From Ignavibacteriales bacterium (GTDB taxonomy: Bacteria > Bacteroidota > Ignavibacteria > UBA10030 > UBA8401), in assembly GCA_026390635.1 (NCBI GenBank), contig JAPLFO010000139.1:34333-98332 (forward strand): 64,000 nucleotides of DNA. The letters run 5' to 3'. The position numbers and the translations under genes are program-made. Positions 4,364 through 48,556 of the stretch are shown here, piece after piece (within the stretch, counting starts at the first letter, position 1; every line of letters begins with the position of its first letter). Under the pieces are notes generated by a model. The model was given only the letters and a program-made list of their open reading frames with translations. It did no database searches and was not told the origin of the DNA.

Positions 4364-5376
4364 AACGAACGCCCTTCGAGTGGAATATAGCGTCTTACCT
4401 CTGCCATCAGTGAGTCAAACATGGGAGGGGTGAGAGACTGTGCCCCATCGGAAAAAGCTTCTTCGGGATTGGGATGCACTTCGATGATCAATCCATCTGC
4501 GCCGACAGCGACTGCTGCTTTGGAGAGAGGGGTAATCAGGCTGCGCACTCCGGTTCCGTGGCTCGGATCGACAATCACCGGAAGATGACTTAGTTCTTTA
4601 ATTGCCGGGACGGCGGAGAGGTCACAGGTGTTCCGCGTATAGTCTTCGAAGGTTCGAATACCGCGTTCACAAAGCACAACATTATAATTGCCCTGGGACA
4701 TGATGTACTCGGCAGACATCAGGAGTTCCTTGATGGTGCTGGACATACCACGCTTCAGCAGTACCGGTTTTGCAATTTTCCCAACCGCTTTTAAGAGGGA
4801 AAAGTTCTGCATATTTCTTGCTCCGATTTGGAGCATGTCTGCGTACTCAGAGACCATCGGAACATCGGTCGGCGTAATCACTTCGGTGACAAATGGGAGG
4901 CCTGTTTCTTCTCTGGCTTCGGCGAGAAGTTTTAGTCCCTCTTCTTCAAGTCCTTGAAATGCATACGGTGATGTTCGCGGCTTGAATGCACCGCCGCGCA
5001 GCATCTGTGCACCTGCTTTTTTTACAAATGCGGCGCTCGCGAGAATTTGTTCGCGGGATTCCACCGAGCAGGGGCCGGCTATCACGACGAATTGATCACC
5101 GCCGATTTTTACGTTGCCAACCGCCACCACTGAAGACTCGCGGCGCATATCTTTGCTTGCGAGCTTATATGGCTTTAAAATTGGCATGACACTTTCCACG
5201 CCATCCGTCGACTCGAGCGCTTGTAGTTGTACTTTTCCGCGTTCATCGCCAACGCAGCCGATGACCGTTCGCTCAGTGCCGACTATCGAATGAGGCTGGA
5301 ATCCAAGCTGTCTTACTCTTTCGTAGACATGCTGCAATTGGGCGTCACTTGCGCCCGGCTTCATTACAATGATCAT
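4360..5376 (-). CDS. 3-deoxy-7-phosphoheptulonate (DAHP) synthase, class I-beta with N-terminal regulatory domain
   Basis: 338 aa. The C-terminal about 260 aa match the KDO8P/DAHP synthase I-beta fold (GPCSVES..., KPRTSPY..., [17 protein letters not shown]). An N-terminal about 80 aa ACT/ferredoxin-like extension matches Thermotoga/Bacillus-type enzymes. Confidence 0.8.
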
Positions 5377-5486
5377 GAACCTGCCCTTGGTATAGTTATT
5401 TGTATCCTAAAAATATAAGAGATTTCCACACCGAAGCAAGAACCAATTGCTTTTGAATCTTCAGGCGAATTGGATATATTTGGTAC

Positions 5487-6884
5487 ATGAAGCTGAAGAC
5501 CACATCCGATACCATTGCTGCTATTGCAACGCCGCCCGGAGAGGGTGGGATTGCCGTTATTCGTGTCAGCGGAATGAACGCTCTTGATATTGTGGGACCA
5601 TTGTTTTCCGGAAAGCGTTCTCTCCACGATAGTCCGTCGCATATGGCTTTGTTGGGGGAGTTCGGCGATGGGGTGGGTGGGTGCTTGGATTCTGTTCTTG
5701 CCACCGTGTTTCGGGCTCCACATTCCTACACTGGTGAAACTGTCGTGGAAGTTAGTTGTCATGGTGGATACTTTATCTCGCGATGCATTCTTGATACCGT
5801 TATTGCAAAAGGGGCCCGTCACGCACTTCCCGGTGAGTTTACGGAACGCGCGTTTTTGAACGGTAAGATAGATCTTAGCCAGGCAGAGGCGGTGGCCGAG
5901 CTCATACACGCTCGATCCGAGTCTGCACGAAAGGCTTCGTACGAACAACTTCACGGCAGACTTGGCGATCGCATCCGGACACTGCGTCGGGGACTACTTG
6001 ATCTATGTTCGTTATTGGAACTTGAGTTGGATTTTTCCGAAGAGGGCATACAAATCAATGGCCTTGACAATGTGTTAGACCAGTTGGCCCAGACAATCAA
6101 GGCTGTCGAAGAGATGTCCGCCACTTTCGCCTCGGGAAAGCTCATCCGCGAAGGTGTCCGAACGGTGCTGGCGGGCAGACCAAACACGGGCAAGTCCAGC
6201 CTCCTGAATATTCTGTTGCAGGAGAATCGGGCTATTGTCAGCGAGATCCCGGGAACCACAAGAGATGTGATTGAGGAGAGCGTATCTATTGATGGGATGC
6301 TTTTTCGCTTGGCTGATACGGCGGGACTCAGGAAGACTGTTAACGAGATCGAAAAAGAAGGAATCCGCCGGACGGAGCACCAGTTGGACAGGGCAGATCT
6401 TGTGCTCTACCTTATGGATACATCGCAACCCCTTGATCCGGAAGATATTTCCCTCATAAAGCCACTTGTCGATACCTGTGCCGGGAGCACTTCGAGGATA
6501 ATCCTTGTTCTCAATAAATCAGATGTTTGTTTGTCTGGATGGAGCAGTGGAGCAGATCTAGCAGGGCTCCCATCCGTAATGGTCTCCTGCAAGGAACACC
6601 GGGGAATAGATACGCTTAAGCGCTTGCTAGTGGATACAATTATGCCTCTACACGACCATTCTATCTCGAGTCCTTTAATATTGAGCTCTCGGCATAAGGC
6701 GGCCCTTGACGGGGCAGCGCTGTCTCTTCGGCTCGCACAAGAGTCCGTCCAACGGCGGATGAGTTTCGAATTTGTTGCCGTAGATATCCATGGAGCGATG
6801 GATGCATTGGGGGAAATTATCGGATACACAACGCCTGAAGACGTCCTCCAGAACATCTTTTCACAGTTTTGCATCGGAAAATAG
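5487..6884 (+). CDS. mnmE: tRNA modification GTPase MnmE
   Basis: 465 aa with G1-G4 GTPase motifs (GRPNTGKSS, DTAG) and the canonical C-terminal CIGK*. The stop codon is TAG. Confidence 0.9.
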   Translation: MKLKTTSDTIAAIATPPGEGGIAVIRVSGMNALDIVGPLFSGKRSLHDSPSHMALLGEFGDGVGGCLDSVLATVFRAPHSYTGETVVEVSCHGGYFISRCILDTVIAKGARHALPGEFTERAFLNGKIDLSQAEAVAELIHARSESARKASYEQLHGRLGDRIRTLRRGLLDLCSLLELELDFSEEGIQINGLDNVLDQLAQTIKAVEEMSATFASGKLIREGVRTVLAGRPNTGKSSLLNILLQENRAIVSEIPGTTRDVIEESVSIDGMLFRLADTAGLRKTVNEIEKEGIRRTEHQLDRADLVLYLMDTSQPLDPEDISLIKPLVDTCAGSTSRIILVLNKSDVCLSGWSSGADLAGLPSVMVSCKEHRGIDTLKRLLVDTIMPLHDHSISSPLILSSRHKAALDGAALSLRLAQESVQRRMSFEFVAVDIHGAMDALGEIIGYTTPEDVLQNIFSQFCIGK

Positions 6885-6913
6885 AGAAACCGTATGTTTC
6901 ACGTGAAACAAAC

Positions 6914-8803
6914 ATGCCCATAGTTCAATCACCTCAAAATCAATACGATGTAGTCGTCGTCGGCGGTGGCCATGCAGGAATTGAGGCTTGCCTGGCCGCT
7001 TCTCGTATGAAGTGCTCAACACTTCTTGTCACCCTAAGCGCGGCCGGGATTGGCCGCATGTCCTGTAACCCTGCTATCGGCGGTACGGCCAAGGGGCACC
7101 TGGTAAAAGAGATCGATTCTTTGGGTGGGGAAATGGGCAAGATTGCGGATGAATCCGGAATTCACTTTAGAATGCTCAACACATCCAAGGGACCGGCGGT
7201 CTGGTCTCCCAGGAGCCAGAATGATAGGGAATTGTATTCTCGCGCTGCATCCAACCGACTGCTGTCACAGGCTGGATTAGATCTCCTTGAAGACGATCTC
7301 TTGCACATCCATACTGAAGGCGAATTTGTTGTTGGAGTAAGCACCCGGGGTGGTCACAGCGTTTTCTGCGCAGCGCTTGTGATATGCACCGGGACGTTTC
7401 TCAATGGATTGATGCATACCGGACAGAAGAGCCGGGAAGGGGGGCGGTTTGGAGAGCGAAGCTCACGTGGCATCTCTGAGAGGCTTGTCGATCTTGGCTT
7501 TGTTGCGGGCCGATTAAAAACAGGAACTCCTCCTCGCATCGATTTGGACAGCATTGATCTTTCTCGCGTTGAAGTTCAACCCAGTGACGACCCACCAAAT
7601 CCGTTTTCACACACAACGAGGCAAATAAAAAATCAGTTGGTCCCAATGTACCTTACGTACACGAACACCGAAACCCACGCGATTCTTCGAAAGGGGTTTG
7701 ATCGGTCGCCGCTTTTCACTGGAAGAATAAAGGGGGTGGGGCCACGGTACTGTCCATCAATCGAAGACAAGGTGAACCGCTTCGCAGACAGAGATCGCCA
7801 TCACATTTTCCTTGAACCGGAAGGGTACAATACAAATGTTGTCTATGTCAACGGATTCTCAACTAGTCTTCCCGAAGAAATTCAGTTTGAAGCTTTGCGT
7901 TCGATTGCAGGTCTTGAACGTGTCGAAATGATCAGGCCTGGCTATGCCGTGGAATATGATTTCTTCCCTCCTCATCAATTGAATCATACTCTCGAGACAA
8001 AATTAGTTCACGGGCTCTTTTTTGCCGGTCAGATCAACGGGACATCTGGATATGAAGAGGCCGCTGGGCAGGGCTTGATGGCGGGAATAAATGCGGCACT
8101 TGCGGTCCAGGATCGTCCGCCATTGATACTTCGCAGGGACCAGGCCTATATCGCCGTCATGATCGACGATCTTATTAACAAGTCCACTGATGAGCCATAC
8201 AGAATGTTCACCTCGCGGGCCGAACACCGGCTTCTTCTGCGACAGGACAATTCCGATCGTCGACTTATGTCCATCGGGTATTCACTCGGTCTCATCTCTG
8301 AAGAATCGCACGCTTATCTTGACAGGAAAGAACGCCTCATAGAAAAGGGGATCTCCTTTCTTCTCTCCTCCTCCGTTGCCCCGACAGCAATTAATCCAAC
8401 ATTGGCAATGAAGGAAGAACGGTTGATCGTGGAGAACGAAAAGCTTTCTCAGCTACTAAAGCGATCGAATATTTCGATTGGAGACCTTGTCCCGGTATTG
8501 CCTCCGGTGGATCAAGAAACTGGAAACGCATTTTCCAACATAGAGATTTCCAGACAAATCGAGATCGATCTCAAATACGAAGGATACATCGCAAGAGAAT
8601 TGCAACAGATTTCTCGGGCGATTCGATTTGAGGAGATGGAGATACCCGAAACATTTGATTTCGCTGATATTAAATCTCTCAGTACCGAGGGAAGGGAGCG
8701 ACTTAAAAAAATTCGTCCGCGTTCGATCGGACAGGCTATGCGAATCTCCGGAGTGACGAGTTCCGACATATCTGTCCTTACAATCCATCTTCGCAAACAA
8801 TAG
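6914..8803 (+). CDS. mnmG: tRNA uridine-5-carboxymethylaminomethyl synthesis enzyme MnmG (GidA)
   Basis: FAD-binding N-terminus YDVVVVGGGHAGIEA. The ORF opens at 6869 but the MPIVQ start at 6914 fits the family. Directly follows mnmE. Confidence 0.9.
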   Translation: MPIVQSPQNQYDVVVVGGGHAGIEACLAASRMKCSTLLVTLSAAGIGRMSCNPAIGGTAKGHLVKEIDSLGGEMGKIADESGIHFRMLNTSKGPAVWSPRSQNDRELYSRAASNRLLSQAGLDLLEDDLLHIHTEGEFVVGVSTRGGHSVFCAALVICTGTFLNGLMHTGQKSREGGRFGERSSRGISERLVDLGFVAGRLKTGTPPRIDLDSIDLSRVEVQPSDDPPNPFSHTTRQIKNQLVPMYLTYTNTETHAILRKGFDRSPLFTGRIKGVGPRYCPSIEDKVNRFADRDRHHIFLEPEGYNTNVVYVNGFSTSLPEEIQFEALRSIAGLERVEMIRPGYAVEYDFFPPHQLNHTLETKLVHGLFFAGQINGTSGYEEAAGQGLMAGINAALAVQDRPPLILRRDQAYIAVMIDDLINKSTDEPYRMFTSRAEHRLLLRQDNSDRRLMSIGYSLGLISEESHAYLDRKERLIEKGISFLLSSSVAPTAINPTLAMKEERLIVENEKLSQLLKRSNISIGDLVPVLPPVDQETGNAFSNIEISRQIEIDLKYEGYIARELQQISRAIRFEEMEIPETFDFADIKSLSTEGRERLKKIRPRSIGQAMRISGVTSSDISVLTIHLRKQ

Positions 8804-8804
8804 G

Positions 8805-9527
8805 ATGTTCCACGTGAAACCGGACATCGAGCTTGTGCTCACACAAAATGGTCTTTCGTTTCAAACATCGCAGGTGCAACAACTGCACCGATATGTTGAG
8901 ATGCTTCTCGACTGGAACAAAAAGATCAATCTGATATCCCGAAAGGATGAAGAGTTGGTGTGGACAAACCATATACTGCTCTCCATGTCCTTTGCGTGCA
9001 TGTTTGAATTCCCCAGTGGAACATCCGTTCTCGACATGGGAACCGGGGGCGGGCTACCGGGCATTCCCCTCAGTATTGTTTTTCCGGAGACGCAATTTCT
9101 TCTTGTAGATTCAGTGCGGAAAAAAATTTCTGCTGTAGGGGAAATGATACAAGCGCTTGGCTTGAACAATGCAAGCACTGTTTGGGGCCGGGCAGAGGAC
9201 CTTTCCGTGACTCGCGGCTTCGCTCCCTTTGATTCCGTTATTGCCAGATCTGTCTCTTCGATAACAAACATCACAACTTGGTCGTTTCCGTTATTGCGAA
9301 AGGACTCCTGCGATACCGTGCAATCACCCTTAACGCGAAACAGGCCACGCCTTCCGTCTCCCGCAATCATTTCCTTGAAGGGGGGTGATGTCAGCGCCGA
9401 AATAGTCGAGACGCAAAAGGAACATCCCCGTGCATCAATCGAAGTGATGGATCTTTCCTTCCCGGGTAGTGAATATCTTCTAAATCAGGAAAAGAAGTTC
9501 GTCATTGTGCGCGAGAAACCGCTTTGA
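8805..9527 (+). CDS. rsmG: 16S rRNA (guanine527-N7)-methyltransferase RsmG (GidB)
   Basis: 240 aa with the SAM motif LDMGTGGGLPGIPL. Third gene of the conserved mnmE-mnmG-rsmG set. Confidence 0.85.
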   Translation: MFHVKPDIELVLTQNGLSFQTSQVQQLHRYVEMLLDWNKKINLISRKDEELVWTNHILLSMSFACMFEFPSGTSVLDMGTGGGLPGIPLSIVFPETQFLLVDSVRKKISAVGEMIQALGLNNASTVWGRAEDLSVTRGFAPFDSVIARSVSSITNITTWSFPLLRKDSCDTVQSPLTRNRPRLPSPAIISLKGGDVSAEIVETQKEHPRASIEVMDLSFPGSEYLLNQEKKFVIVREKPL

Positions 9528-9582
9528 TAAGTCACCCAAAATGCGTAATTTTTACGATTCCTCATAACATTCAGGATGCCTC

Positions 9583-10542
9583 TTGGAACAGACAAATCCC
9601 GTTTTTGAGCAACTCAAACACCTCACCACCGAGCAACGCAATCCAGCAAGCATGGATATTGACGCACGCTCCATTACCGATGTTCTCACTATTATCAACA
9701 ACGACGACATCAAGGTTGCCTATGCCGTTCAAGAGGAAATCCCGTATATCGCCAGAGCCGTAGAGCTTGTCGTTTATGCTTTCAAGCAGGGTGGACGATT
9801 GCTCTATGTTGGCGCCGGCACAAGTGGGCGCCTTGGCGTGCTTGATGCGGCCGAATGTCCACCAACGTATGGTAGCGACCCGGAGATGGTTCAGGGAATG
9901 ATTGCCGGCGGCGAGAAGGCCATGTTCAGGGCGCAGGAGGGAGCGGAAGATCGGGAGGAAAGTGGCGCGGCAGATATTGACGCTAAAGATGTTTCTTCCA
10001 AAGATGTTGTGTGCGGGATTGCGGCAAGTCTCCGCACACCGTATGTTATCGGCGCGGTGAAGCGCGCAAAAGAGCGCGGCGCTCAAACGCTTTATGTGAC
10101 CACAAATCCGCGCGACAGGTTCTCTCTTCCCGAATATCAATCCCTCGCACAGGCAATAGATATTCCAATATGCACCGTTGTGGGACCAGAGGTTGTCATG
10201 GGATCCACGCGTATGAAATCCGGTACGGCGCAGAAGCTGGTACTTAATATGATCACCACCTGTTCGATGATTCGCCTCGGCAAGGTGTACGAGAACATGA
10301 TGATCGACCTCCAGATGACAAATTTGAAGCTGAGGGAACGGGCAAAAAAAATAGTTATGACAATTACCGGCGCCTCGTATGAGGAAGCCGCTGCCGCATT
10401 AGACGCTGCGAATGGACACGTGAAGAGCGCCTTGGTAATGATCAAGACCGGTGTTTCATATGAAGAGGCTCGTACCCGCCTAGCAAGGGCTGATGGATTC
10501 GTCCGCGCCGCAATCGAGGGGAAAGAGTATTCGTCTCTTTGA
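9583..10542 (+). CDS. murQ: N-acetylmuramic acid 6-phosphate etherase
   Basis: 319 aa SIS-domain protein collinear with E. coli MurQ (…GGRLLYVGAGTSGRLGVLDAAECPPTYG…). Confidence 0.85.
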   Translation: MEQTNPVFEQLKHLTTEQRNPASMDIDARSITDVLTIINNDDIKVAYAVQEEIPYIARAVELVVYAFKQGGRLLYVGAGTSGRLGVLDAAECPPTYGSDPEMVQGMIAGGEKAMFRAQEGAEDREESGAADIDAKDVSSKDVVCGIAASLRTPYVIGAVKRAKERGAQTLYVTTNPRDRFSLPEYQSLAQAIDIPICTVVGPEVVMGSTRMKSGTAQKLVLNMITTCSMIRLGKVYENMMIDLQMTNLKLRERAKKIVMTITGASYEEAAAALDAANGHVKSALVMIKTGVSYEEARTRLARADGFVRAAIEGKEYSSL

Positions 10543-10567
10543 ACAAACATCTTTTAGAGTGTGAGCA

Positions 10568-11278
10568 ATGCAAATCCCACCCGTTTTCAACGAGACAGAC
10601 ATTCCTCCGTTTATTGGATTTCCCAAAGAAGCTCTCCAATTCCTTCGGCGTCTCAAGAAGAACAATAACCGGGAATGGTTCGGTGCCCATAAGGATGAAT
10701 TCGAAGATCTTGTTAAGGCGCCAATGGAGGCGCTGGTCACTTCGCTCCAACCCGGATTTGATACCTTTGCGCCGGATTTCGATTTGAATCCCAAGAAGGC
10801 GATTTTCCGGATCTATCGGGATGTCCGGTTCAGCAAAGACAAATCCCCATACAAGACGCATATTGCCGCCCATTTTGTGGTCGCTGGCCGGCCCAAGGGC
10901 TTGGAGGGATCCGGATACTACCTCCATATTGAACCGGGAGAGGTTTTTCTCGGTGGAGGCATCTACATTCCCGATGGCGATCAGTTGAAGAAAATTCGGC
11001 GCGCCCTCGCGGCAAGGCCGAAAGAATTTCTTGAAGTCCTCAGAAACAAGATGTTCCGAAAAGCTTTTGGCGAACTTCAGGGTGAGAAACTCCAACGCGT
11101 GCCCGCCGGATATACTCCCGACAATCCGATGGTAGAGTATCTCAAGTTGAAACAGTTTTTTGTCGGATCACAATTCAAAGACTCCGTTTGCCAAGATGAA
11201 GACTTTCTTCAACTTTGTCTTCGCACATTCGCGACAGCATCGCCATTGATAGAATTCTTGAACGACGCACTCCGCTAG
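10568..11278 (+). CDS. DUF2461 (TIGR02453) family protein
   Basis: 236 aa. The pattern …NNNREWFGAHKDEFE…YRDVRFSKDKSPYKTH… is characteristic of the conserved hypothetical family TIGR02453. Confidence 0.55.
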   Translation: MQIPPVFNETDIPPFIGFPKEALQFLRRLKKNNNREWFGAHKDEFEDLVKAPMEALVTSLQPGFDTFAPDFDLNPKKAIFRIYRDVRFSKDKSPYKTHIAAHFVVAGRPKGLEGSGYYLHIEPGEVFLGGGIYIPDGDQLKKIRRALAARPKEFLEVLRNKMFRKAFGELQGEKLQRVPAGYTPDNPMVEYLKLKQFFVGSQFKDSVCQDEDFLQLCLRTFATASPLIEFLNDALR

Positions 11279-11296
11279 CATTCTGCCGAGGTCCGA

Positions 11297-11893
11297 TTGC
11301 CGAGTCATCATCATCGGTACATTCTGCTTTTTAAGCCGTTCAATGTGCTTTCCCAGTTTACCGACAAAGAGGGGCGCTCAACACTTGCGTTGTTTGGCCC
11401 ATTTCCCAAAGAGGTCTATCCGGTCGGACGGCTTGACTTTGACAGCGAGGGACTGCTCCTGCTGACAGATGATACGGGATTGACCCACCGGCTGCTTGAA
11501 CCTCGTTTCGGTCATCCCCGCACTTATTGGGTGCAGGTTGAGGGAATTCCGACAGAGGATGCGTTGCGCCAGCTTCGCAGCGGCGTTATGATTCAAGATC
11601 AAAAAACTCTCCCCGCTGAAGCGCGAATTCTGCCGCTCGATCCCGCGTTCCCTGAACGGAGCGAACCGATCCGCGTACGGAAAAATATTATGACTCAGTG
11701 GATCGAATTGGTACTCCGCGAAGGTAGAAATCGACAGGTAAGGAAAATGACCGCTGCCGTCGGCTACTCGACACTTCGCATTGTCCGGGTCAGAATAGGA
11801 AACGTGGAGATCGGAGGATTGCAGCCCGGTGAACACCGGGAGCTGACTTCCGCAGAAATTCATTCTCTTCGACATTCAGTTCAACTTTCATAA
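11297..11893 (+). CDS. rRNA pseudouridine synthase (RsuA/RluE family)
   Basis: 198 aa with YPVGRLDFDSEGLLLLTDD (catalytic Asp motif of the RsuA/RluB/RluE family) and no S4 domain, so it is RluE-like. Confidence 0.7.
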   Translation: MPSHHHRYILLFKPFNVLSQFTDKEGRSTLALFGPFPKEVYPVGRLDFDSEGLLLLTDDTGLTHRLLEPRFGHPRTYWVQVEGIPTEDALRQLRSGVMIQDQKTLPAEARILPLDPAFPERSEPIRVRKNIMTQWIELVLREGRNRQVRKMTAAVGYSTLRIVRVRIGNVEIGGLQPGEHRELTSAEIHSLRHSVQLS

Positions 11894-11923
11894 ATCATCA
11901 CAATCCCCATGGAGGGGGCTTTC

Positions 11924-13261
11924 ATGAAATTGGTTCTCACTTCGTTCCTGCTATTCGCCGTCGGAGCTGTTGTCGCCGGAACGCCGCTCAATATTCCGTT
12001 CTAGAAATACGTTCTGCCGAACGGTGTCAACGTTATTCTTCACGAAGATCATTCTGTTCCAATTGTCTCTGTGAACGTCTGGTATCATGTCGGATCCAGC
12101 AGGGAGAAGCTGGGTAGAACGGGGTTTGCCCATCTCTTCGAGCACATGATGTTTCAGGGATCAGAACATGTCGATAAGGGTGGGCTCTTCGGAAAAATCC
12201 AGGATGCCGGTGGAACGCTGAACGGTTCAACCACCAATGATCGGACAAATTATTTTGAAACTGTTCCGAGTCAATTCCTTGAACTCGCACTCTGGCTTGA
12301 AGCTGATCGAATGGGATTTTTGCTTCCGTCCATGAATCAATCCAAACTCGACAATCAGCGGGACGTGGTCAAGAATGAGCGGCGTCAGAGCTATGATAAT
12401 CAACCCTATGGCCGTGCCGACGAAACGCTTTCGGCCATGATGTACGATGCTTCGCATCCATACGGCTAGCCCGTCATTGGATCGATGGCTGACCTGAGTG
12501 CGGCTTCTCTCGTCGATGTCAAGGATTTCTTCACACTGTATTACGCACTGAACAATGCCAGTCTCTGCGTTGCCGGAGACTTCAATCCCTCGCAAGCAAA
12601 AGAATGGGTCACAAAGTATTTCGGGAGCATCGCAAGGGGAAACGATGTGGCGCGAATTGAAATAGAGCAACCGGCAAAGAACGCTGCAAAGCGGGACATT
12701 ATGGAAGACCGCGTTCAATTGCCCCACCTGTATGTTGCCTGGCACTCCACGCCGTTGTCCGGAAAAGATGATGCAACGCTCGACGTTCTTGCGGATGTTC
12801 TTGCCGGCGGCAAGAACTCGCGATTCTACAAGACGCTGGTCTATGACAAACAAATTGCGTAGGATGTCGTTGCATATCAATACAGCCGCGAACGCGCCGG
12901 CGCCTTTCACATCGAAATCACCGCAAAGCCCGGAATCAGCCTGGCGGACGTCGAAAAAATCATGCGCGATGAAATTGCAAATGTGCAAAAGAATGGTGTA
13001 ACTGATCGCGAGGTCCAGCACGCGCGAAACGGTATTCGTTCTCAATTCGTTTTCCGGCTTCAATCCGTCGCCGGAAAATCCGACCAACTGAATCACTTCA
13101 ACGTCATGTGGGGAGATCCCGGCATGATCAACAAAGATCTTGCCCTGTACGACGGAATTACTCCCGAACAGGTACAAAATGCTGCAAAGAAGTACCGGAC
13201 TCCGAACACAATGGTTCTGAGCATTGTGCCAACGGGAAAACGGGAACTTGGCGCTCAATAA
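11924..13261 (+). pseudogene. M16 (pitrilysin-family) zinc peptidase, reading frame interrupted by three in-frame TAG codons
   Basis: A single frame is collinear with M16 peptidases for 446 codons (HLFEHMMFQGS = HxxEH zinc site, ...NERRQSYDNQPYG...). TAG codons at 12002-12004, 12467-12469 and 12860-12862 interrupt it, with no frameshifts. The RBS GGAGGGGG precedes the ATG at 11924. Confidence 0.7.
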
Positions 13262-13299
13262 CTTCCGACGATCATCACATGACCATGGAGTATGAACTC

Positions 13300-14738
13300 A
13301 TGAAATCGATAATGGTATTTTCATTTGTTGCGGTTCTCTGTGTCCCCGTCCTTGTTGCGCAAATAGACCGCAGCAAGGCGCCGGCACCACAACCCACACC
13401 ATCTATTTCACTTCCTAAAATTCAACGTACTGCACTTGCTAATGGCGCGACACTGATTGCTGTAGAGCATCATGAACTTCCCATTGTTCGGGTCCGCTTG
13501 ATTCTCAAATCGGGATCGTCGCTCGACCCCTCCGGCAAGGCCGGTGTTGCCAGTCTGACCGCACAAATGGTGCGTGAGGGAACCGAGAAGCGAACGTCTC
13601 TTCAGATAGATGATGAATTTGATTTTCTCGGCGCGAACTTCTTCATCACGTCTTCGGGAGATGCAACAACCGCATCTTTGCAGACACTGAAAGAGCCTCT
13701 CGATCGGTCTCTCGATGTGTTTGCGGATGTACTTTCACATCCATCGTTTCCATCGGCCGAATGGACGCGCGTTCAGCAACAACACCTGACAGGATTGTTG
13801 CAGCAAAAAGACCGCCCCACCACTGTTGCAAACAATGTGTTTGCGGCGTTGCTGTACGGCTCCGGCCATCCCTATGGCAGACCGGAAGACGGTACCGATC
13901 GAACCGTGCAATCTATTCTACTCGACGATGTGAGGGATTTCTATGCCAGGAATTACGTTTCGTTGAATGCGACAACCATCGTTGTCGGCGATATTGCGTT
14001 GGCTGAAATTCAATCTGCGCTTGATAAGCATTTTGCCGATTGGAAAAGTGCAACCGCACCGGGGGCCCGGTATTCGAACAGCCCGGCAATTGACGGCACA
14101 AAGATATTTCTTGTCGATAAGCCCAAACGGCTCAATCGGCTCAATCGGAAATCCGCATCGGTCATCTTGGCGCACCGCGCAATAGCGGCGACTACTATGC
14201 CCTGGCGATCATGAATATGATTCTCGGCGGACAATTCAGTTCCCGCATCAATCTGAATTTGCGCGAGGCAAAGGGCTATACATACGGCGTCCGTTCCGGA
14301 TTCACATGGAGAAGGGAAGTCGGTCCGTTTATCGCATCCTCCGGAGTGAAGATAGCAATCACAGACAGTGCTGTGATTGAAATTATGAGAGAATTGCACC
14401 GCATCAGAAAAGAAGATGTGGCCCCTGCAGAACTGGAACTTGCAAAAAATGGAATTATTCGAGGACAGCCACAGGGACTTGAAACGCCAATGCAGATCGT
14501 ACAGCAACTTTCGATGCTTGTGTTTTTTGGTTTGCCGGACACCTATTTCGACAACTTTGTTCAGAATATCGAACAGGTCGCCGCTGCCGATGTTCGCCGT
14601 GTTGCTGAAAAATATCCACGGCCGGATGCGGCAAATATTGTGATTGTGGGGGATGTTTCCGCGATCCGTCCGGGCCTAGATGCTCTGGGCTATGGAACGG
14701 TGACGATCGTGGACGTTGACGGAAAATCGATACAATAA
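13300..14738 (+). pseudogene. M16 peptidase non-catalytic partner subunit (signal peptide), disrupted by a -1 frameshift
   Basis: M16 fold without HxxEH (…VEHHELPIVRV…). The frame switches from the 13108 frame to the 14211 frame around 14122-14127 (…IFLVDKP | QTAQSAQSEIRIGHLGAPRNSGDYYALAIMNMILGG…). A 9-bp tandem duplication cggctcaat x2 sits at 14128-14145. Confidence 0.65.
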
Positions 14739-14759
14739 GAGTTTCCGCTTCTGCCAAAC

Positions 14760-14791
14760 GCCCTCTGAGGTTTTCGCCGGAGGGCTTTTTT
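14760..14791 (+). terminator. rho-independent terminator candidate downstream of the M16 pair
   Basis: gccctc-N14-gagggc stem followed by TTTTTT. Confidence 0.5.
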
Positions 14792-14792
14792 A

Positions 14793-16103
14793 TTACGTCT
14801 TCTGCTGTTTCTTCTTTGCAGCGGGAAAGAGGATGTTGTTCAGAATGAGCCGATAGCCCGGCGAATTTTTATGCAGCGCGAGATCTGTTGGAGGATCTCC
14901 CACTGCGTGTTGATAGTCTTCCGGATCATGACCGCCATAGAATGTGAATGTACCCCGACCGTAATTTCCGTGCAGATAACGAACCTCTTCCGTTCCTTCC
15001 CGCTCGGCAAGAATGACGACATTGGGTTTGACCAAGCGCTTCTTGAACGCGGTCGTCTGTCCCATGAACCCCTTGATAATATTGACATGATTCTGTGTCA
15101 ACATCGTTGGAACGGGATCATATTTTGCAGAGAATTCGAACAATGTAAAATAGTCTGTATCCGGATCACGGAGAGGAACCGGATCGCTCGGCGGAATGTC
15201 GATGTCCGAGTATTCATAGCGGAACGGATTCATCTCAAGAGTAAAATCTTGGAAGGCAAAGGTCTTCTTATAATCGAGGCGCTGCTGGGCGTTGCGATCT
15301 GACGGATCGCCATCGAACATTACGTCGCAGATATCCGTGTTTTCTGCGGCAAGGGCAATGTCGTAGCTGTCGGTGGCGGAACACATGGCAAACATAAAAC
15401 CACCGCTTCCGACAAAATCCTTGATGGCGCGGGCGACCGCTTTTTTTTCTTCTGAGACTTTCTTATATCCAAGTCTCTTCGCTTCCTTTTCATAGAGAAT
15501 TTGTTGTTCAATATACCATGCGGAATTGCGGTGTGATCCATAGAACTTTCCGTATTGACCGGTGAAATCCTCGTGATGGAGATGAAGCCAATCGCACTGC
15601 GCAAGTTTTCCCTGCAACACTTCATCATCCCAGAGTTTTTTGTATGGAATCTCCGCGTACTCCAGGGCAAGCGTCACCGCATCGTCCCACGGTTTGAATC
15701 CCGGCGGAACATAGACCCCTACCTTCGGGGCCTTTTCAAGTCGAATCACATCCTGGTTGTTGTCATCCCGGGCGATGGTGCCGTATATTTCGGCCGCGGC
15801 GGCAGCGCTCATCTCCTCGAACGACACACCCCGGATACGGCATTCATTTGCAATCTCGTTTGTGTTGTCAATCGCAAATGATCCTCCGCGATAATTCAGA
15901 AGCCAATCGATCTCAACGCCGTGCTCGAGCGCCCAGAATCCAATTCCGTATGCTTTCAAGTGGTTGGACTGCTTCGCGTCCATAGGGATGAGTAGCTTCT
16001 GCTGGGAGAAGGCGTTGAGGGCGCAGACTAGAAGAAATTGCACAATGACGATGAGTCGGCAAATTCCGAATGTTAGTACACAAAAAAAGTTCATACGCTG
16101 CAT
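14793..16103 (-). CDS. hypothetical secreted protein (N-terminal signal/TM; possible DJ-1/GATase1-like nucleophile elbow FAMCSAT)
   Basis: 436 aa with a hydrophobic N-terminus. No confident family assignment from sequence alone. Lies 39 nt downstream of the ECF sigma gene. Confidence 0.45.
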   Translation of the reverse strand: MQRMNFFCVLTFGICRLIVIVQFLLVCALNAFSQQKLLIPMDAKQSNHLKAYGIGFWALEHGVEIDWLLNYRGGSFAIDNTNEIANECRIRGVSFEEMSAAAAAEIYGTIARDDNNQDVIRLEKAPKVGVYVPPGFKPWDDAVTLALEYAEIPYKKLWDDEVLQGKLAQCDWLHLHHEDFTGQYGKFYGSHRNSAWYIEQQILYEKEAKRLGYKKVSEEKKAVARAIKDFVGSGGFMFAMCSATDSYDIALAAENTDICDVMFDGDPSDRNAQQRLDYKKTFAFQDFTLEMNPFRYEYSDIDIPPSDPVPLRDPDTDYFTLFEFSAKYDPVPTMLTQNHVNIIKGFMGQTTAFKKRLVKPNVVILAEREGTEEVRYLHGNYGRGTFTFYGGHDPEDYQHAVGDPPTDLALHKNSPGYRLILNNILFPAAKKKQQKT

Positions 16104-16141
16104 TATGCAACGTACGAACTTTCATTGATTAGAGCAACAGT

Positions 16142-16768
16142 TCAGGCGGCGGAGAGAACGATATCAAAGGCGCTGTCGGTCTCTTCTTCTTCCGCTGTTC
16201 CGGATTTAATGTAACCGTTCTTCTCGGCAAACGCTCGGAGTTTCTTTTGCATCACTTTGCGGGCACGATGGAGACGTGAGCGAACTGTGCCAAGTGGTAT
16301 ATTCAGAATTTCCGCGATTTCTTCGTACGTTAATCCTTCCAGATCGGAGAGAATGATAATCGTCCGGAATTCCTCTGTAAGACTCTCCATTGCTTTCACG
16401 ACCTCGTCGTCCAGAAGATTGTCAAACACTTGCTGCCGGAGGTCGTTGCCTTCGCCGGTGCGCTCTCTCACCAGATCATAGTATTCAGCAATCTCATCAT
16501 AGTCCACCTGATCGGGAGCCCGTGAGCTCTTGCGATAATCGTTGATGAAGGAATTCTTCATAATTCTGAAGAGCCACGCTTTGGCGTTTGTCCCTTTTTC
16601 GTACTTGTCAATAAACCGGTATGCTTTGAGAAAGGTATCCTGCAGAAGATCTTTCGCGTCGTCTGTACTGCCTGTGGTCTTGATGGCATAGTTGTAGAGC
16701 AGGTTCATGTGGGGAACCATTTCTTTCTTAAAGAGTGCCTCTTTCGCAGATGTTCTCATGGCTTTCAC
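16142..16768 (-). CDS. RNA polymerase ECF-type sigma-70 factor
   Basis: 208 aa with region 2 (…LLQDTFLKAYRFIDKY…) and region 4 helix-turn-helix (…LTYEEIAEILNIPLGTVRSRLHRARK…). Confidence 0.85.
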   Translation of the reverse strand: MKAMRTSAKEALFKKEMVPHMNLLYNYAIKTTGSTDDAKDLLQDTFLKAYRFIDKYEKGTNAKAWLFRIMKNSFINDYRKSSRAPDQVDYDEIAEYYDLVRERTGEGNDLRQQVFDNLLDDEVVKAMESLTEEFRTIIILSDLEGLTYEEIAEILNIPLGTVRSRLHRARKVMQKKLRAFAEKNGYIKSGTAEEEETDSAFDIVLSAA

Positions 16769-16998
16769 CTTTCAATGTTCTGTCCGTCTAAAGCATCTTA
16801 TACCCAATAGAACAAACGAGAGTTCCCGAACCCACAAAATCGTTGAATTTGGAGGTTTTTGCTGATTTCTGCCCGATTTGAGCGGATGGGGGGGTGGAGG
16901 CGGGGAAAAATCAGTCGGGGGACGGAATTATGTTCAGGAGGAAGCTCGGGATATCGAACTCTTTGGCCGAGCTCAGCGTCCAACAGGAATTGACGAGG

Positions 16999-18675
16999 TC
17001 AGACCTTCTCGGCGCCAAAGTCCCGGTATAGTTTTCCGAGCAGAGGGTGATCCTTTTCCGGTGTTGCAGGCGAGGACGTTGTTGCGACGGCCAGAACAGA
17101 TGGCAGCACCGGTGCATTCGCCTTGTGGAGAATTGGATTGACAGCAACAGACACTCCCGAGAGTTCGCAGAAGAGTTGTGTCAGATACTGTTGATTTCTT
17201 CGCAACGTGGAAAGATGGTACTCATCCGTACAGGCGATGCGAAATACTCCGACATGCACATCGAGCGGCGAGCACTTTTCAAGGATAGTGCCGACGCCAA
17301 TCTTTCCCCTTTTTGCGCTCTCAACAAACGCATCCCAATGCCCCCGCAATTGTTCGAAAGAAATCTTTGAGGCGGGCGGCGGCTGGGGAACTCGAACCGG
17401 CTCATTCTCTTTCCCGGTGAATGACTTCACCGGATTTGACTCGAATGGATTGGGTGTGCTTTGCGGGACGTATAGTGTTTTCTCTTCTGAGACCGCCGGG
17501 GACTTGTGCGCCGGCACTGTCGGAGCAACCGGACGCGGAACACCTCTCAGCGCTTCGATGTCCTGCAACAGCCGGCCAAGATCCACTGTTACGGAAATCT
17601 TCGCCATCTGTACGAGTGCCACCTCCAATGCGAATCTCGGCTGCGAGTGGTAGCGAAGCGAAGCCTCCGTATCGGTGGTGAGCTTACTCAATCGAAGGAT
17701 GTCTGCTTCTGTAAATTGCTCTGCCGCTGTCGCATATTGTGCCCGGTGAACTTCGGGCGCTTCGATCAATCGCGTTGAGCCGGTTGTCCTGGCGATGAGA
17801 AGGTTTCGCAAGTGCTCTGCTATTCCGGAGACGAATTCTTTCAGATCGTAGCCTGTCCGCACAACATCATCCACAAGCTGAAGCGCTGCACGCGAATCGT
17901 GTGCAGCAATTACATCGGTCACGCGAAAATAATATTCCAGATCAACAATATTCAGAACTGAAATAAGCTGCTTTGCCGTAATCCTGTCGTCGCAGAAGGA
18001 CACCGCCTGGTCAAAAAGGCTCTGCGCATCCCGCATCGCGCCGTCCGCCTTTTTAGCGATCATCAGCAGTGCATCGTCATCGATGGAAATTGTTTCTTGG
18101 CCGGCGATATGGCGAAGGCGTGACATAATGTCTTTAATGGAGATGCGCCGGAAATCGTACCTCTGGCAGCGGGAGATGATAGTGGTCGGAACTCTTTGAA
18201 TTTCCGTTGTTGCAAAAATGAAGATTACGTGCTCGGGTGGTTCTTCCAGCGTTTTCAACAGCGCATTAAACGCGCCTTTCGAAAGCATGTGAACTTCATC
18301 AATGATGTACACCCGTTTGCCACCACGCGACGGCGCGTAGCGCACCGCTTCCTTAATGCTGCGAATATCATCCACGCTGTTTGTGGAGGCGCCGTCGATT
18401 TCAATGATATCGAGGCTGCGGCCGGCATTAATCTCTTCGCAGATCTCGCATTCATTGCACGGATCGAAATTCTTTGGATGCAGACAGTTGACGGCCTTGG
18501 CGAGAATGCGGGCGGTTGTTGTCTTTCCGCAGCCGCGGCCGCCGGTAAAAATAAATGCGTGCGCCAACCGGTTCCCGGCAAGTGCATTGCGGAGAGTGTT
18601 GGAGATGTGTGATTGTCCAATGACATCATCGAACACCATTGGACGCCATTTACGGGCAGTGACTAAATAGGACAT
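16999..18675 (-). CDS. dnaX: DNA polymerase III subunit gamma/tau
   Basis: 558 aa with the N-terminal AAA+ clamp-loader motif FTGGRGCGKTTTARILAKAVNC followed by a Cys4 zinc module. Confidence 0.9.
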   Translation of the reverse strand: MSYLVTARKWRPMVFDDVIGQSHISNTLRNALAGNRLAHAFIFTGGRGCGKTTTARILAKAVNCLHPKNFDPCNECEICEEINAGRSLDIIEIDGASTNSVDDIRSIKEAVRYAPSRGGKRVYIIDEVHMLSKGAFNALLKTLEEPPEHVIFIFATTEIQRVPTTIISRCQRYDFRRISIKDIMSRLRHIAGQETISIDDDALLMIAKKADGAMRDAQSLFDQAVSFCDDRITAKQLISVLNIVDLEYYFRVTDVIAAHDSRAALQLVDDVVRTGYDLKEFVSGIAEHLRNLLIARTTGSTRLIEAPEVHRAQYATAAEQFTEADILRLSKLTTDTEASLRYHSQPRFALEVALVQMAKISVTVDLGRLLQDIEALRGVPRPVAPTVPAHKSPAVSEEKTLYVPQSTPNPFESNPVKSFTGKENEPVRVPQPPPASKISFEQLRGHWDAFVESAKRGKIGVGTILEKCSPLDVHVGVFRIACTDEYHLSTLRRNQQYLTQLFCELSGVSVAVNPILHKANAPVLPSVLAVATTSSPATPEKDHPLLGKLYRDFGAEKV

Positions 18676-18787
18676 AATTCCGCTTTGGTATTTAGTTTCC
18701 TCGCTACAGAGTTCACAGCGTTATGCTGCTGGAGATGTGAGCCGGCAATGTTCAGCCCGCCGATATTTTTCCTGTGGAAGCCTTCCA

Positions 18788-21172
18788 CTATTTTTTTCCA
18801 AAAACGTACGGCAGCGCCTGCTCGATGGTCTCGATGGGAATGATCTTCAGGCCATCTTTGACCTTCTCCTGAATTTCCACCAGATCTTTTTCATTTTCGC
18901 TCGGGATGAGCACCGTGGTAATTCCGTTGCGTTTTGCCGCGATGAGTTTTTCATTCAGCCCGCCGATCGGCAGAACATTTCCGCGGAGCGTAATTTCCCC
19001 TGTCATTGCGATATCCGCACGGGCGGGGATGCCGCGGAACACGGAAATCATCGCCATCGCCATTGTGATGCCGGCAGAGGGACCATCTTTGGGAATCGCG
19101 CCTTCGGGCAGATGAATGTGCACTTCTTTCTTTGTAAAGAAATCGTTCGGCAGTTTCAGTTTTTTCGCATTGGAGCGGATGTAGCTGAGCGCTGCATGCG
19201 CGGACTCCTTCATCACGTCGCCCAATTGGCCGGTGAGTGTCAGCCGCTCCGGACCGCGCATGACGGTTACATCGACTTCTAAAATGTCGCCGCCGACGCT
19301 TGTCCATGCGAGACCCGTCACCGAACCCACGCGCGGTTTTTGATCGGCATGACGTGCCCGGAATTTTGGAACTCCGAGGTACTGCTCTATATGCTTTTCA
19401 TCGACGATCAGCACGGCCGATTTTTTCTTTTTCTTCTTCTTGGAATTCTTCTCCAGCACAATTTCCTTTGCGATCTTCCTGCACACCGATGCAATCTCGC
19501 GTTCCAAATTACGGACACCGGCCTCACGCGTGTATTCACGCACGATCTTCATTAGAGAGGCATCGGGAATCTCGATCGATTTGTCTTTCAGCCCGTGTTC
19601 CATCATCTGCTTCGGAAGGATGTGCCGCCGTGCAATTTCGCGCTTGTCGTAATCCAGATATCCGGACAGTTCGATAATTTCCATGCGGTCCTGCAGCGGC
19701 AGCGGAATCTGGTAGCGCACGTTGGCGGTGGTGATGAACATCACACCGGACAGATCGTAGTCCACATCCAGATAGTGGTCGTTGAACGTATTGTTCTGCT
19801 CCGGATCGAGCACTTCAAGCAGGGCGGAGGCGGGATCGCCGTGGAAATCCATGCTCATCTTGTCCACTTCATCCATCAGCAGAACGGGATTTGTGCTGCC
19901 GGCACGTTTCATGGATTGAACGATCTTGCCCGGCATGGAGCCAATGTACGTACGGCGGTGACCGCGAATTTCCGCCTCATCTCTCACGCCGCCCAGTGAA
20001 ATGCGGACAAATTTTCTTCCAAGTCCGCGCGCGATCGATTTTGCAAGCGATGTTTTTCCGACGCCCGGTGGTCCGACAAGACAGAGGATTTGACCCTTCA
20101 TCTCCTTGACAAGATTTAGAACGGCGATGTGCTCCAGAATCCGTTCTTTCGGTTTCTCCAATCCAAAATGGTCTTCGTCAAGAATGGTCTTGACGTGATC
20201 GATCTTCAGATTGTCCTTGGTGCGCACATGCCATGGCACGCCGGTCAGCCAGTCCAGATAGTTGCGGGTGACGGTGAACTCCGGCGACATCGGCGGCGTT
20301 TTTTTCAGCTTGTTGAATTCCTCCATCGCCTTTTCGCGCGCCTCTTTCGGCATCTTTGCCTTTTCAATATCCTCCTTGATCTTCGCGAGTTCCGGTGACG
20401 ATTCATCCTCGCCCAGTTCATCCTGCAGAATCTTGATCTGCTCTTGAATGAAAAACTTGCGCTGTGATTTTTGAATATTTTCGTGCACCTTTGTGTCGAT
20501 CTCGCGTTCGATCTTCAGGACGCTGATCTCGCCGTTCAGAATGCGGATCATTTCCATGTACTGCTCGCGCGTGGTCTGAATGCGCAAGATCCGCTGTTTG
20601 GTTTCGACGTTTTGCGTAATGTTGGCGGCGATATAATACAGTTTGCGCTGCGGATCGTGGATATTGTCGAACGCGGAGAGAACTTCCGGCGGAATGTTCC
20701 GGTTGGTGCGGACGTATTCTGTGAATAAATTTGCCGCATGGCGGACGATTGCTTCAAGCTCTTTGGACGGTTTGGGTGAATCGCTCCAGAGTGCGACTTC
20801 TGCCTGCAGGAATTTTTCGTTGGGAAGATACTTCACGGCGGTCGCCTGCATCACGCCGTCCACCAGAATCTTCAGCATGCCGTTGGGCAGTTTAAGAATC
20901 TGTACAATGCGGGCGACAACGCCTTCCTTGAAAATATCGTCCTGTGTCGGTTCGTCGATGGTGGGATCCTGTTGCGCTGCAAGGAAAATATATTTGTCTG
21001 CCTCAAGCGCCGCGTTGGCTGCGTGCAGAGATGATTCACGGCCGACCAAAACCGGAAAAATCATATAGGGAAAAATCACCACATCCCGCAATGGTAGAAC
21101 GGGAAGCGTTGTGGGGATTGGTTCGGGAGGATCAACCAGTAATTCGGGTTGTTTTTTGTTCGATTGTGCCAT
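18788..21172 (-). CDS. lon: ATP-dependent Lon protease
   Basis: Lon N-domain, AAA+ (GPPGVGKTS) and an S16 protease domain with a catalytic Ser-Lys (…[10 protein letters not shown]…). The ORF extends to 21361, but the MAQSNKK start at 21170-21172 is preferred. It contains a lysine-run insertion. Confidence 0.9.
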
Positions 21173-21411
21173 GTGAGGATTGTGTTGATAAAAGAAAACA
21201 AGCGGAATATGTTTTTCCGCTTGCAGGGAAATAGAAATTTGAGTGGTAAAAGATAGGAAGAAAAAAGGCGATTTCCAAAAGGGATTAGAGTGCTGGCGCC
21301 GTGTGTTGCAAGCGATCCGCCGGGTATTGCCGATTACGGTGCACACTATGAGGCCTGTCACGCGCGTCCCGCTCCCGGCTTTTTCGCCGGGAGCGGAAAT
21401 CGGCGCTTCTG

Positions 21412-26856: not shown

Positions 26857-28671
26857 TCAGTTTCTTTTTTTAGGCAGCTTCGGCAAATTCTTCGTTAAGG
26901 AATTCATAATCCCGCCGCCGCCTTTTTTCGGTGTCACTTTCTGCAGCGGCTGATTATCGTGCTGCTTGTTCACAAAGAACTGCTGACCGATGGAGAGAAT
27001 ATTGAAAACAAAGTAATACAGATTTAGTCCGGACGGGAAGTTGTTGAACAAAAGCCACATCATGATCGGCATCATCCAGACCATGCTTTTCTGACGCGGG
27101 TCGGTCACCGTCATCTTCTGCTGAACGAACATTGTGATACCCATCAGCAGCGCTACGCCGCTCAGTGCGTGGACGCCAAACAGCGGCAGCGTAAACGGCA
27201 GGCTCAGAACAACATCCGGAACGGAAAGATCTTTAATCCACCAGAAAAATTCCGCATGCCGAAGGTTGATCGACGTCGTAAAGAGCGTATAGAGCGCATA
27301 GAGAATCGGCATCTGCAGTAGCAGCGGCAGACATCCGCCGGCCGGATTGACGCCGTAGTCTTTGTAGAGCTTCATCACCTGCTCGTTCATCTTTGCAGGA
27401 TCGTCTTTGTATTTTACCTTGATCTCTTCCATCATCGGCTGGAGAGCCTGCATCTTCTTCATCGACTTCATGCTGTTTTTGTTCAGCGGATGAAGGGCGA
27501 CTTTGATGAGGATGGAGAAGAGGATGATTACGATGCCGTAGTTCGGGATGAAGAGATGCAAAAAGCGAAATAGCGGCATGAATATGTAGTTGTTCAACGG
27601 CCGGATCCAGGACCATCCCATGCTGAGTATGTTGTCCAGGCTGCGCCCAATATTTTTGATTACTGTGAAGTCCAATGGACCAAGAAACACGGTGAAGGAT
27701 GTTGTTTCTTCCATTCCGTTTTTGTAAGGCACTTTGAGGCCGATGGAATAATGCTCAAGAGCTCCGCCGGATGGTGCGCTCTCATGTTTGCCGCCGAGAT
27801 ATCCCCCTTGCGCTTTTTTGTCATCAGAGAGGAGGGCAACGGCAAAATATTTTGTGCGCGCAGCCACCCAGTCTGTCGAACCATTGGTATTCGATTCCGG
27901 TAATTCTCCGACTTTGGCTGCATCGATCTCGCTCAGTTCGCCTCCGGCAAAAAGGAATGCTTTCGCAGACTGCGATTCGTCGACGCTGTTGTATTCCGCA
28001 TAGCGAAGACCGCTTTCCCAGACCACCTGGTACTCATAATTGGCAATAACCCGCTGCACCCCTTTGAATGTCACCGCCGCATTGAACGTATAGTCGCCGT
28101 TCTTAAAGCGAAGTGTTTTGATAATGCTTCCGTCGCCGGCTTTCAGCTCAAAGGCAACAGTGTACTCCTCGCTTCCCGTCAGCGTCACGGATTGCGATGT
28201 CCGGAATGATCCATCAAAAAAGAGCGAACGGGTGTTGATGAGCTTTCCGTCGGTGGTATTGAAGAGGAGTGAAAAATCTCCCTGCTCCGGCGACTGCACC
28301 AGCTGCACGGGATTTCCATCCCATGTTTTGTACTGTTTCATCTCCCACGTACGGATGACGCCGCCTTTGGTGGAAAGTACTGCTTTGTACTGATCTGTTT
28401 CAATCGTCAACAAGCGTTCTGTCCCATTCGCTGCTCCGGAAAAATACTTTCCCAGTGTATCGCGCAGTGATGCGTCTTCCGGCACGGATGTCGTAACAGA
28501 TTCTTTCTGCTGCGAACGTTGTGCGGCAGCCGGTTTTGCGTGGGCCGAGTCTTTTGTCAACTCGGACTTTGATTTCAACTCCTGCTTGTTGGGGTTTGGC
28601 GAAGAGTACCACATCCACGCCATCAATACCACCGCGATGAGAACAAATCCTATTGTTGACTGTTTATCCAT
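26857..28671 (-). CDS. yidC: membrane protein insertase YidC
   Basis: 604 aa with an N-terminal TM, a large periplasmic domain and the C-terminal 5-TM YidC/Oxa1 core. Confidence 0.9.
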   Translation of the reverse strand: MDKQSTIGFVLIAVVLMAWMWYSSPNPNKQELKSKSELTKDSAHAKPAAAQRSQQKESVTTSVPEDASLRDTLGKYFSGAANGTERLLTIETDQYKAVLSTKGGVIRTWEMKQYKTWDGNPVQLVQSPEQGDFSLLFNTTDGKLINTRSLFFDGSFRTSQSVTLTGSEEYTVAFELKAGDGSIIKTLRFKNGDYTFNAAVTFKGVQRVIANYEYQVVWESGLRYAEYNSVDESQSAKAFLFAGGELSEIDAAKVGELPESNTNGSTDWVAARTKYFAVALLSDDKKAQGGYLGGKHESAPSGGALEHYSIGLKVPYKNGMEETTSFTVFLGPLDFTVIKNIGRSLDNILSMGWSWIRPLNNYIFMPLFRFLHLFIPNYGIVIILFSILIKVALHPLNKNSMKSMKKMQALQPMMEEIKVKYKDDPAKMNEQVMKLYKDYGVNPAGGCLPLLLQMPILYALYTLFTTSINLRHAEFFWWIKDLSVPDVVLSLPFTLPLFGVHALSGVALLMGITMFVQQKMTVTDPRQKSMVWMMPIMMWLLFNNFPSGLNLYYFVFNILSIGQQFFVNKQHDNQPLQKVTPKKGGGGIMNSLTKNLPKLPKKRN

Positions 28672-28694
28672 TTACGTTGCTCCACCTCTGAAAA

Positions 28695-28907
28695 TTATTG
28701 TACCGGATCGTAGCCGCCTTTGTGCCACGGATGACATTTGCCGATGCGCCGTACTGTATGCCACAGTCCTTTCACGGCACCGAACTTCTGAAGAGCATCA
28801 ATGGAATATTGGGAACATGTGGGATAAAACCTGCATGTGTTTGCAGGAAGAAGGGGTGATATCAGGGTCTGATAGAGCCTGACCAATGCGATCAACACCA
28901 GCTTCAC
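28695..28907 (-). CDS. yidD: membrane protein insertion efficiency factor YidD
   Basis: 70 aa, …[39 protein letters not shown]…. Confidence 0.85.
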
Positions 28908-28910
28908 GGC

Positions 28911-29336
28911 CTACTCCATCGATGCGAGGATTTTTGCGGCGATCTCATTCCAGTCCTCCTGCAAAGACCGGAGAGATGCCCCGTGTGAAACGGGGCTGCT
29001 GCGTTGTTGATATACCAGAACAATCCGCAGATCTCTGGTATATTCATCTGCGGCGACGCGAAGTATGGTTGCCTTCATCCGATATGCCTCGCGCATCAGT
29101 CGTTTGATTCTATTCCGATCAACTGCGCGCGGCACTCTTTTTTTGGGAACAGCAAAGCCTGTTTTGACTCCCGCGCTCCGGTTATTGCTTTTTGTGTCAG
29201 CGCTTCGTTGAAGCATAACGACGTGGCACAGAAGACAGCCAGAGCGGACGCGTACACCGTTCCGGACGACATCCGCAAAGGCCTTAAAGCCCCGAAGTAT
29301 ATCCGTTTTTTGAAGAGTGTTACGCACACCTGTCAT
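28911..29336 (-). CDS. rnpA: ribonuclease P protein component
   Basis: Basic about 140-aa protein with an RnpA-like RNR motif region (…KKRVPRAVDRNRIKRLMREA…). Lies in the conserved rpmH-rnpA-yidD-yidC context. Confidence 0.8.
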   Translation of the reverse strand: MTGVRNTLQKTDILRGFKAFADVVRNGVRVRSGCLLCHVVMLQRSADTKSNNRSAGVKTGFAVPKKRVPRAVDRNRIKRLMREAYRMKATILRVAADEYTRDLRIVLVYQQRSSPVSHGASLRSLQEDWNEIAAKILASME

Positions 29337-29359
29337 AGGGGATGTTTGATGCCGGGCGG

Positions 29360-29503
29360 CTACTCGTCGCTAACGCTTAGTTTGTGGCGCCCTTTTGCTC
29401 TGCGGCGGGAAAGAACTTTGCGTCCGTTCTTCGTGGACATCCGTTCGCGGAAACCGTGTGTATTCTTGCGCTTCCGATTGTGTGGCTGAAAAGTGCGTTT
29501 CAT
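29360..29503 (-). CDS. rpmH: 50S ribosomal protein L34
   Basis: Not in the ORF track (47 aa). Manual reverse-complement translation gives [47 protein letters not shown]. Confidence 0.9.
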
Positions 29504-29930: not shown

Positions 29931-29933
29931 CCT

Positions 29934-48511: not shown

Positions 48512-48556
48512 GCAACCTCCGAAAAATATATTAGTGGAAAAAAGACGGTCTTCGCC

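Follow-up and report, generated by a model that had tools for sequence, protein, structure and literature searches.

Two-subunit zinc peptidases of the M16B family are represented by the heterodimer 3AMJ from Sphingomonas sp. A1, in which an active subunit (chain C) is paired with an inactive one (chain B); the two genes are adjacent, and only the first carries the HxxEH motif. Ordinary bacterial pseudogenes decaying under AT-biased mutation (Hershberg and Petrov 2010, PMC2936535) show stop codons a single step from a sense codon and mainly of G:C>A:T origin, indels in homopolymer runs, elevated numbers of replacements and the loss of functionally linked partner genes as well. In-frame TAG codons within a conserved coding frame are also the mark of systems that decode TAG, namely pyrrolysine insertion, phage recoding of TAG to glutamine and suppressor tRNAs. 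The window analysed here, a 64,000-nucleotide stretch of Ignavibacteriales DNA, contains a pair of adjacent M16B genes that resembles each of these in part: its first gene is interrupted by three in-frame TAG codons and its second by a frameshift. We read the pair as an inactivated two-gene M16B operon, an ordinary pseudogene pair fixed in an uncultured Ignavibacteriales population, and put the probability of this reading at about 90%.

The first gene, for the active subunit, occupies 11924–13261 on the forward strand. Its frame of 446 codons begins with a signal peptide, ends in TAA and is broken by internal stops only at codons 27, 182 and 313. Peptidase_M16 (E = 7.7e-20) and Peptidase_M16_C (E = 1.7e-37) domains together span the frame in Pfam, the closest intact orthologue (P0001) is 79% identical over 445 amino acids, full length, and an alignment of the window gene with 26 homologues (27 sequences) is collinear on both sides of each TAG. 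All three stops are thus bridged by homology in a single frame, and the 446-codon frame is therefore not a chance one. The codons of the zinc-binding motif HLFEH (12131–12145, forward strand) are intact at alignment columns that are invariant, as is the glutamate of the downstream NERRQ motif, and there are zero indels across the 1338 bp. Translation, Pfam and alignment thereby bear out the first-pass annotation of the window, which had described a 446-codon M16 frame, collinear with M16 peptidases, with an intact HxxEH site and TAG at these three codons. Its further statement that there are no frameshifts holds within 11924–13261 and fails for the adjoining partner gene, which it had overlooked.

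Each TAG stands where orthologues carry a well-defined residue. TAG 1 (12002–12004, forward strand; codon 27) lies directly behind the signal peptide, at a position where orthologues have Q (CAA in the closest relative, L081) or E (GAG in two more distant relatives, L089 and L090). TAG 2 (12467–12469, forward strand; codon 182) replaces a near-invariant W (TGG) through a G>A transition, and TAG 3 (12860–12862, forward strand; codon 313) replaces a near-invariant Q (CAG) through a C>T transition. Two other ways of accounting for this stretch were rejected. A split gene with separately functional pieces does not fit TAGs that fall inside both domains rather than at the domain boundary, the first of them directly behind the signal peptide. 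An antisense open reading frame of 343 amino acids at 12227–13258 on the reverse strand is a shadow of codon usage and not a gene, because it occupies the codon-complement frame and the same frame is open for 174–196 amino acids in the orthologues.

The partner gene, for the inactive subunit (13279–14738, forward strand; without HxxEH), is split by a frameshift into ORFs at 13279–14214 and 14211–14738, which encode an N-terminal piece of 311 amino acids and a C-terminal piece of 175 amino acids in different frames. Comparison with three intact orthologues located two lesions. The run CCCAAA (14122–14127, forward strand; ancestrally CCC-CAA or CCC-AAA-A) has lost 1 bp, which displaces the downstream frame by −1, and an in-frame 9-bp tandem duplication (14130–14147, forward strand; GCTCAATCG twice), which is not in the three orthologues, inserts AQS into the conserved motif AQSEIRIG. 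Programmed −1 frameshifting was considered for this site and rejected for want of a canonical slippery heptamer, because CCC-AAA-C does not have the form X-XXY-YYZ.

Both M16 proteins have signal peptides and each contains Peptidase_M16 and Peptidase_M16_C domains; in the partner, ASLTAQMVREG stands where the active-site motif would be. The best solved match of the first gene is 3amj_C, a 'zinc peptidase active subunit' (5.9e-59), and the best solved matches of the second are 'inactive subunit' chains, 3gwb_A (4.5e-49) and 3amj_B (1.2e-45). Like 3AMJ, then, the window pair consists of two adjacent genes with HxxEH in the first only. Unlike 3AMJ, it survives as relics, the first gene carrying three TAGs, the second a frameshift and the 9-bp duplication; an active heterodimer calls for both frames to be intact, and here they are not. 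Judged by domains and motifs, the pair is best described as the relic of a putative secreted or periplasmic two-subunit zinc peptidase.

Relatives retain the ancestral arrangement. L081 has an intact M16 pair (450 and 483 amino acids) and the same gene order as the window (DAHP synthase, mnmE, mnmG, rsmG, SIS, DUF2461, pseudouridine synthase, M16, M16), and the more distant L089 and L090 have intact M16 pairs too. Identity to L081 is 79% for the first M16 gene and 71% for the second, with intact neighbour genes ranging from 56 to 92%. A search among 5.8 billion clustered proteins returned no intact allele of the window gene, the best full-length match being 79% identical, and among the matches listed the best identity in GTDB representative genomes was 54–55%. 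Database entries for the window gene are limited to fragments; one of them, NCBI MCX6137588.1, comes from a 160-kb contig and is annotated as 'insulinase family protein [Ignavibacteriales bacterium]'.

The surroundings of the pair include several other features. The most conserved neighbour gene is a 436-amino-acid ORF without a Pfam match (14793–16103, reverse strand), 92% identical to its L081 counterpart; it adjoins an ECF sigma factor gene (16142–16768), and its two population SNPs are non-synonymous (C170Y and L10P). The window spans the neighbourhood of the chromosomal replication origin, at 5487–9527 (mnmE, mnmG and rsmG) and 26857–31349, the latter with yidC (26857–28671, reverse strand), rnpA (28911–29336, reverse strand) and dnaA (29934–31349, forward strand) and a gap of ~600 bp between rnpA and dnaA. 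Beyond it, at 31771–38298 on the forward strand, a 322-amino-acid ORF without a Pfam match is followed by an ORF of 1852 amino acids (32740–38298, forward strand), the ATG of which abuts the TAA of the first. The sole Pfam match of the longer ORF is a class I/II aminotransferase domain at residues 424–754. Both ORFs are unchanged in independent assemblies.

The course of inactivation that we propose for the M16 pair is a simple one. The active-subunit gene would have acquired three independent nonsense mutations (CAG or GAG to TAG, TGG to TAG and CAG to TAG), and the partner gene would have acquired the 1-bp deletion and the 9-bp duplication; loss of either subunit would remove selection on the other. 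Translation of the first gene would stop at codon 27, right behind the signal peptide, so that presumably no enzyme is made. We infer the order of these events, as well as the absence of a product. The locus offers what is expected of a pseudogene: full-length homology, intact orthologues, real lesions, a stop codon that does terminate translation and relaxed constraint. A 'young pseudogene' had been one of three options left by the first-pass annotation, and it is supported here because the partner gene is broken as well, constraint is relaxed and each TAG lies one step from its ancestral codon.

First, the mutations are of an ordinary kind. A single substitution in the inferred ancestral codon accounts for each TAG. 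At sites 2 and 3 it is a G:C>A:T transition; at site 1 the change was C>T if the codon was CAG and G>T if it was GAG. The comparison with orthologues that the first-pass annotation had proposed, in which particular sense codons at these positions would indicate point nonsense mutations, accordingly gave Q/E, W and Q (codons CAA/GAG, TGG and CAG) and supports that origin. Bacterial mutation is dominated by G:C>A:T transitions (Hershberg and Petrov 2010, PMC2936535). Of the 148 single-base routes to a nonsense codon in the restored gene, 59 lead to TAG, which gives three TAGs out of three a probability of ~0.05–0.06; the value is unremarkable because the feature was singled out after the fact.

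Second, the first gene has accumulated replacements. We counted private changes at columns identical among the other three members of a set of four sequences (the window, L081, L089 and L090), with third codon positions as the internal control in the rate comparison; among the 90 loci there were no outgroups for the flanking genes with which to run control relative-rate tests. The first window gene has 31 private amino-acid changes (29 missense and 2 stops) against 11 in L081, and 30 private third-position changes against 34. The signal in the second gene is weaker, with 26 against 19 amino-acid and 39 against 33 third-position private changes. At near-invariant columns, the first window gene has six private changes, five of them radical (H88L, P209L, R366H, R408L and L425R), and close relatives have 0–2, mostly conservative. 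Population SNPs in the M16 pair are non-synonymous in three of three cases, one of them (V264I) at an invariant column, and those in intact neighbours comprise 4 non-synonymous and 7 synonymous changes. From the excess of ~18 missense changes, ~1 nonsense change would be expected, and the three observed are within Poisson range (p ~0.07). These substitution counts indicate a lineage-specific relaxation of constraint on the first M16 gene, and suggest it with moderate confidence for the second.

Some properties of the first gene sit less easily with decay. All three stops are TAG and at least two are G:C>A:T transitions, which is mildly improbable (~0.05), and there are no indels despite ~20 excess replacements, with catalytic codons intact. 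The decay would be modest to moderate rather than ancient, because identity to L081 is mid-range among the neighbour genes, the first gene has no indels and its catalytic codons are intact.

A different account is that the TAGs arose together in a burst of cytosine deamination, brought about by a mutator episode or by a toxin with deaminase activity, and not one after another by slow neutral decay. Sites 2 and 3 are of the G:C>A:T type that such a burst would leave and site 1 may be, and G:C>A:T accounts for 33 of the 69 private nucleotide changes of the window gene; in the sister lineage L081, however, the figure is 26 of 67, so that the excess is small. The lesions of the partner gene are indels, the mutated cytosines stand in differing contexts (TCA, CCA and GCA) and therefore reveal no single deaminase motif, and the ordinary bacterial spectrum already favours G:C>A:T (PMC2936535). 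We consider a burst very unlikely, and it is in any case a variant of the pseudogene explanation that confers no alternative function on the gene.

Third, TAG is a normal terminator in this genome. It ends 13 of the 46 greedily chosen ORFs of the window (~28%), among them those of mnmE, mnmG, Lon, an S41/T9SS protein and an M23-LysM protein; the first-pass annotation had already pointed to TAG at the ends of mnmE (5487–6884) and mnmG (6869–8803), and rightly so. The TAG-ended ORFs that we checked have complete Pfam architectures and no back-up stops, with as many as 204 and 761 codons before the next non-TAG stop, and efficient read-through would therefore fuse neighbouring proteins. Its products would include a fusion of DUF2461 with the pseudouridine synthase and another of two secreted proteins of ~800 amino acids. 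These two secreted proteins are tandem paralogues encoded at 46271–51121 on the reverse strand (746 and 854 amino acids). Both possess a signal peptide, a Peptidase_S41 domain and a C-terminal T9SS sorting domain, and they share a reading frame with a TAG and 15 codons between them. Two complete secreted proteins in one frame amount to an internal proof of TAG termination here. When the window was scanned from stop to stop with TAG read as sense, every TAG inside a long frame outside the first M16 gene separated two complete genes or marked a normal gene end, leaving one gene in ~45 with internal TAGs.

This usage bears directly on amber suppression or programmed read-through, another of the options raised by the first-pass annotation, according to which a suppressor tRNA(CUA) of host or phage origin, or a local signal, would yield a full-length peptidase, perhaps conditionally. 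TAG is indeed the sole stop type that interrupts the frame, the catalytic motif is intact in a gene without indels, and Q, which TAG-to-Q recoding inserts, is the aligned residue at two of the three sites. Yet ~28% of ORFs end in TAG without nearby back-up stops, the aligned residues are not uniform (Q/E, W and Q) and the second TAG replaces a near-invariant W. The bases 3′ of the three TAGs differ (A, C and G), the 90 nt that follow each TAG show no more structure than shuffled sequence (z = 0.2, 1.1 and 1.7), a search near the TAGs found no SECIS- or PYLIS-like structure, and the 64-kb window contains no tRNA and no Rfam match. The signal of relaxed constraint points the opposite way, and the frameshift in the obligate partner subunit means that reading through the TAGs would not by itself give back a complete enzyme. 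The locus thus shares with TAG-decoding systems the in-frame TAGs within a conserved coding frame, and differs from them in that the window often uses TAG as a terminator without the protection of back-up stops, a single gene in ~45 is interrupted, the aligned residues are mixed and no tRNA or recoding element was found nearby. With TAG terminating, the residues differing and the partner frameshifted, we regard suppression as very unlikely.

A narrower version would have the TAGs decoded only under certain conditions, for example through a suppressor tRNA whose gene lies outside the window or that a TAG-recoding phage brings in, with the peptidase subunit made only then; if true, this would be a natural amber-gated gene in Ignavibacteriales, and we hold it to be highly improbable. 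Editing of UAG to UGG by A-to-I deamination through TadA was rejected: the three sites read TAGA, TAGC and TAGG and are without TACG, the known TadA editing motif.

Fourth, the pair, under relaxed constraint as shown above, carries lesions that are genuine and fixed. Using the intact neighbouring DUF2461 protein (10568–11278) as a query, we retrieved 16 contigs from independent Logan assemblies and compared seven, from runs in three accession series (ERR15302187, ERR15302198, ERR15302214, ERR15302224, SRR20698638, SRR20698651 and SRR25046533). They are 99.9–100% identical to the window. Base by base, the seven have TAG at each of the three sites that they cover, one contig ending after the first site, and the six that reach the partner gene all carry the identical frameshift sequence, with deletion and 9-bp duplication. 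Gene calls in these assemblies split the first M16 gene in the same manner, into pieces of 31, 132, 125 and 99 amino acids. At 12 further SNPs in this stretch the seven depart from the window (16 when all the assemblies compared are counted), and they are therefore not the same data.

It follows that sequencing or assembly error, in which the true genome would have sense codons at the three positions and which the first-pass annotation had listed as a systematic possibility, is refuted as an explanation because seven independent assemblies carry the same TAGs. Metagenome-assembled genomes can a priori carry consensus errors, and nothing specific of that kind was found; six assemblies share the frameshift as well while other SNPs differ, and three stop-creating substitutions in one gene, with ~45 neighbouring ORFs unaffected, are no error pattern. 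What chance remains for this explanation is next to negligible.

The same contigs drew attention to two other stretches of the window. In the two SRR-series contigs that reach 12713–19153 (L083 and L086), all SNPs relative to the window lie within that interval, and the ~7 kb upstream (5012–12700), covered by L083, have zero SNPs, which may reflect a recombination boundary or chance. Inside lon (18788–21361, reverse strand), position 19874 is the exact end of four of the seven independent contigs and 20304 the start of another, which suggests that 19874–20304 is strain-variable or hard to assemble; nearby there is only a weak 32-nt direct repeat.

Finally, acquisition of the gene from a donor that reads TAG as an amino acid, such as a phage, would suit the two TAGs of three that align with Q, but the conserved chromosomal gene order as in L081, the 79% identity, the TAG that aligns with W and the uniform G+C across the region leave it a vanishingly small chance.

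Read as an ordinary pseudogene pair, the M16 pair matters mainly for annotation. In its single-step stops of mainly G:C>A:T type, its indel in a homopolymer run, its elevated replacements and the loss of the functionally linked partner, nothing essential sets it apart from other bacterial pseudogenes, the one difference being the all-TAG coincidence (p ~0.05–0.06). Both M16 genes should be labelled pseudogenes, and not several short 'insulinase family proteins' of the type represented by MCX6137588.1. The locus is also a control case for scans for stop reassignment, given that one stop type alone can interrupt a gene by chance (p ~0.05). Such cases are worth checking against the use of the codon as a terminator nearby, the residues aligned at each stop and the state of functionally linked genes.
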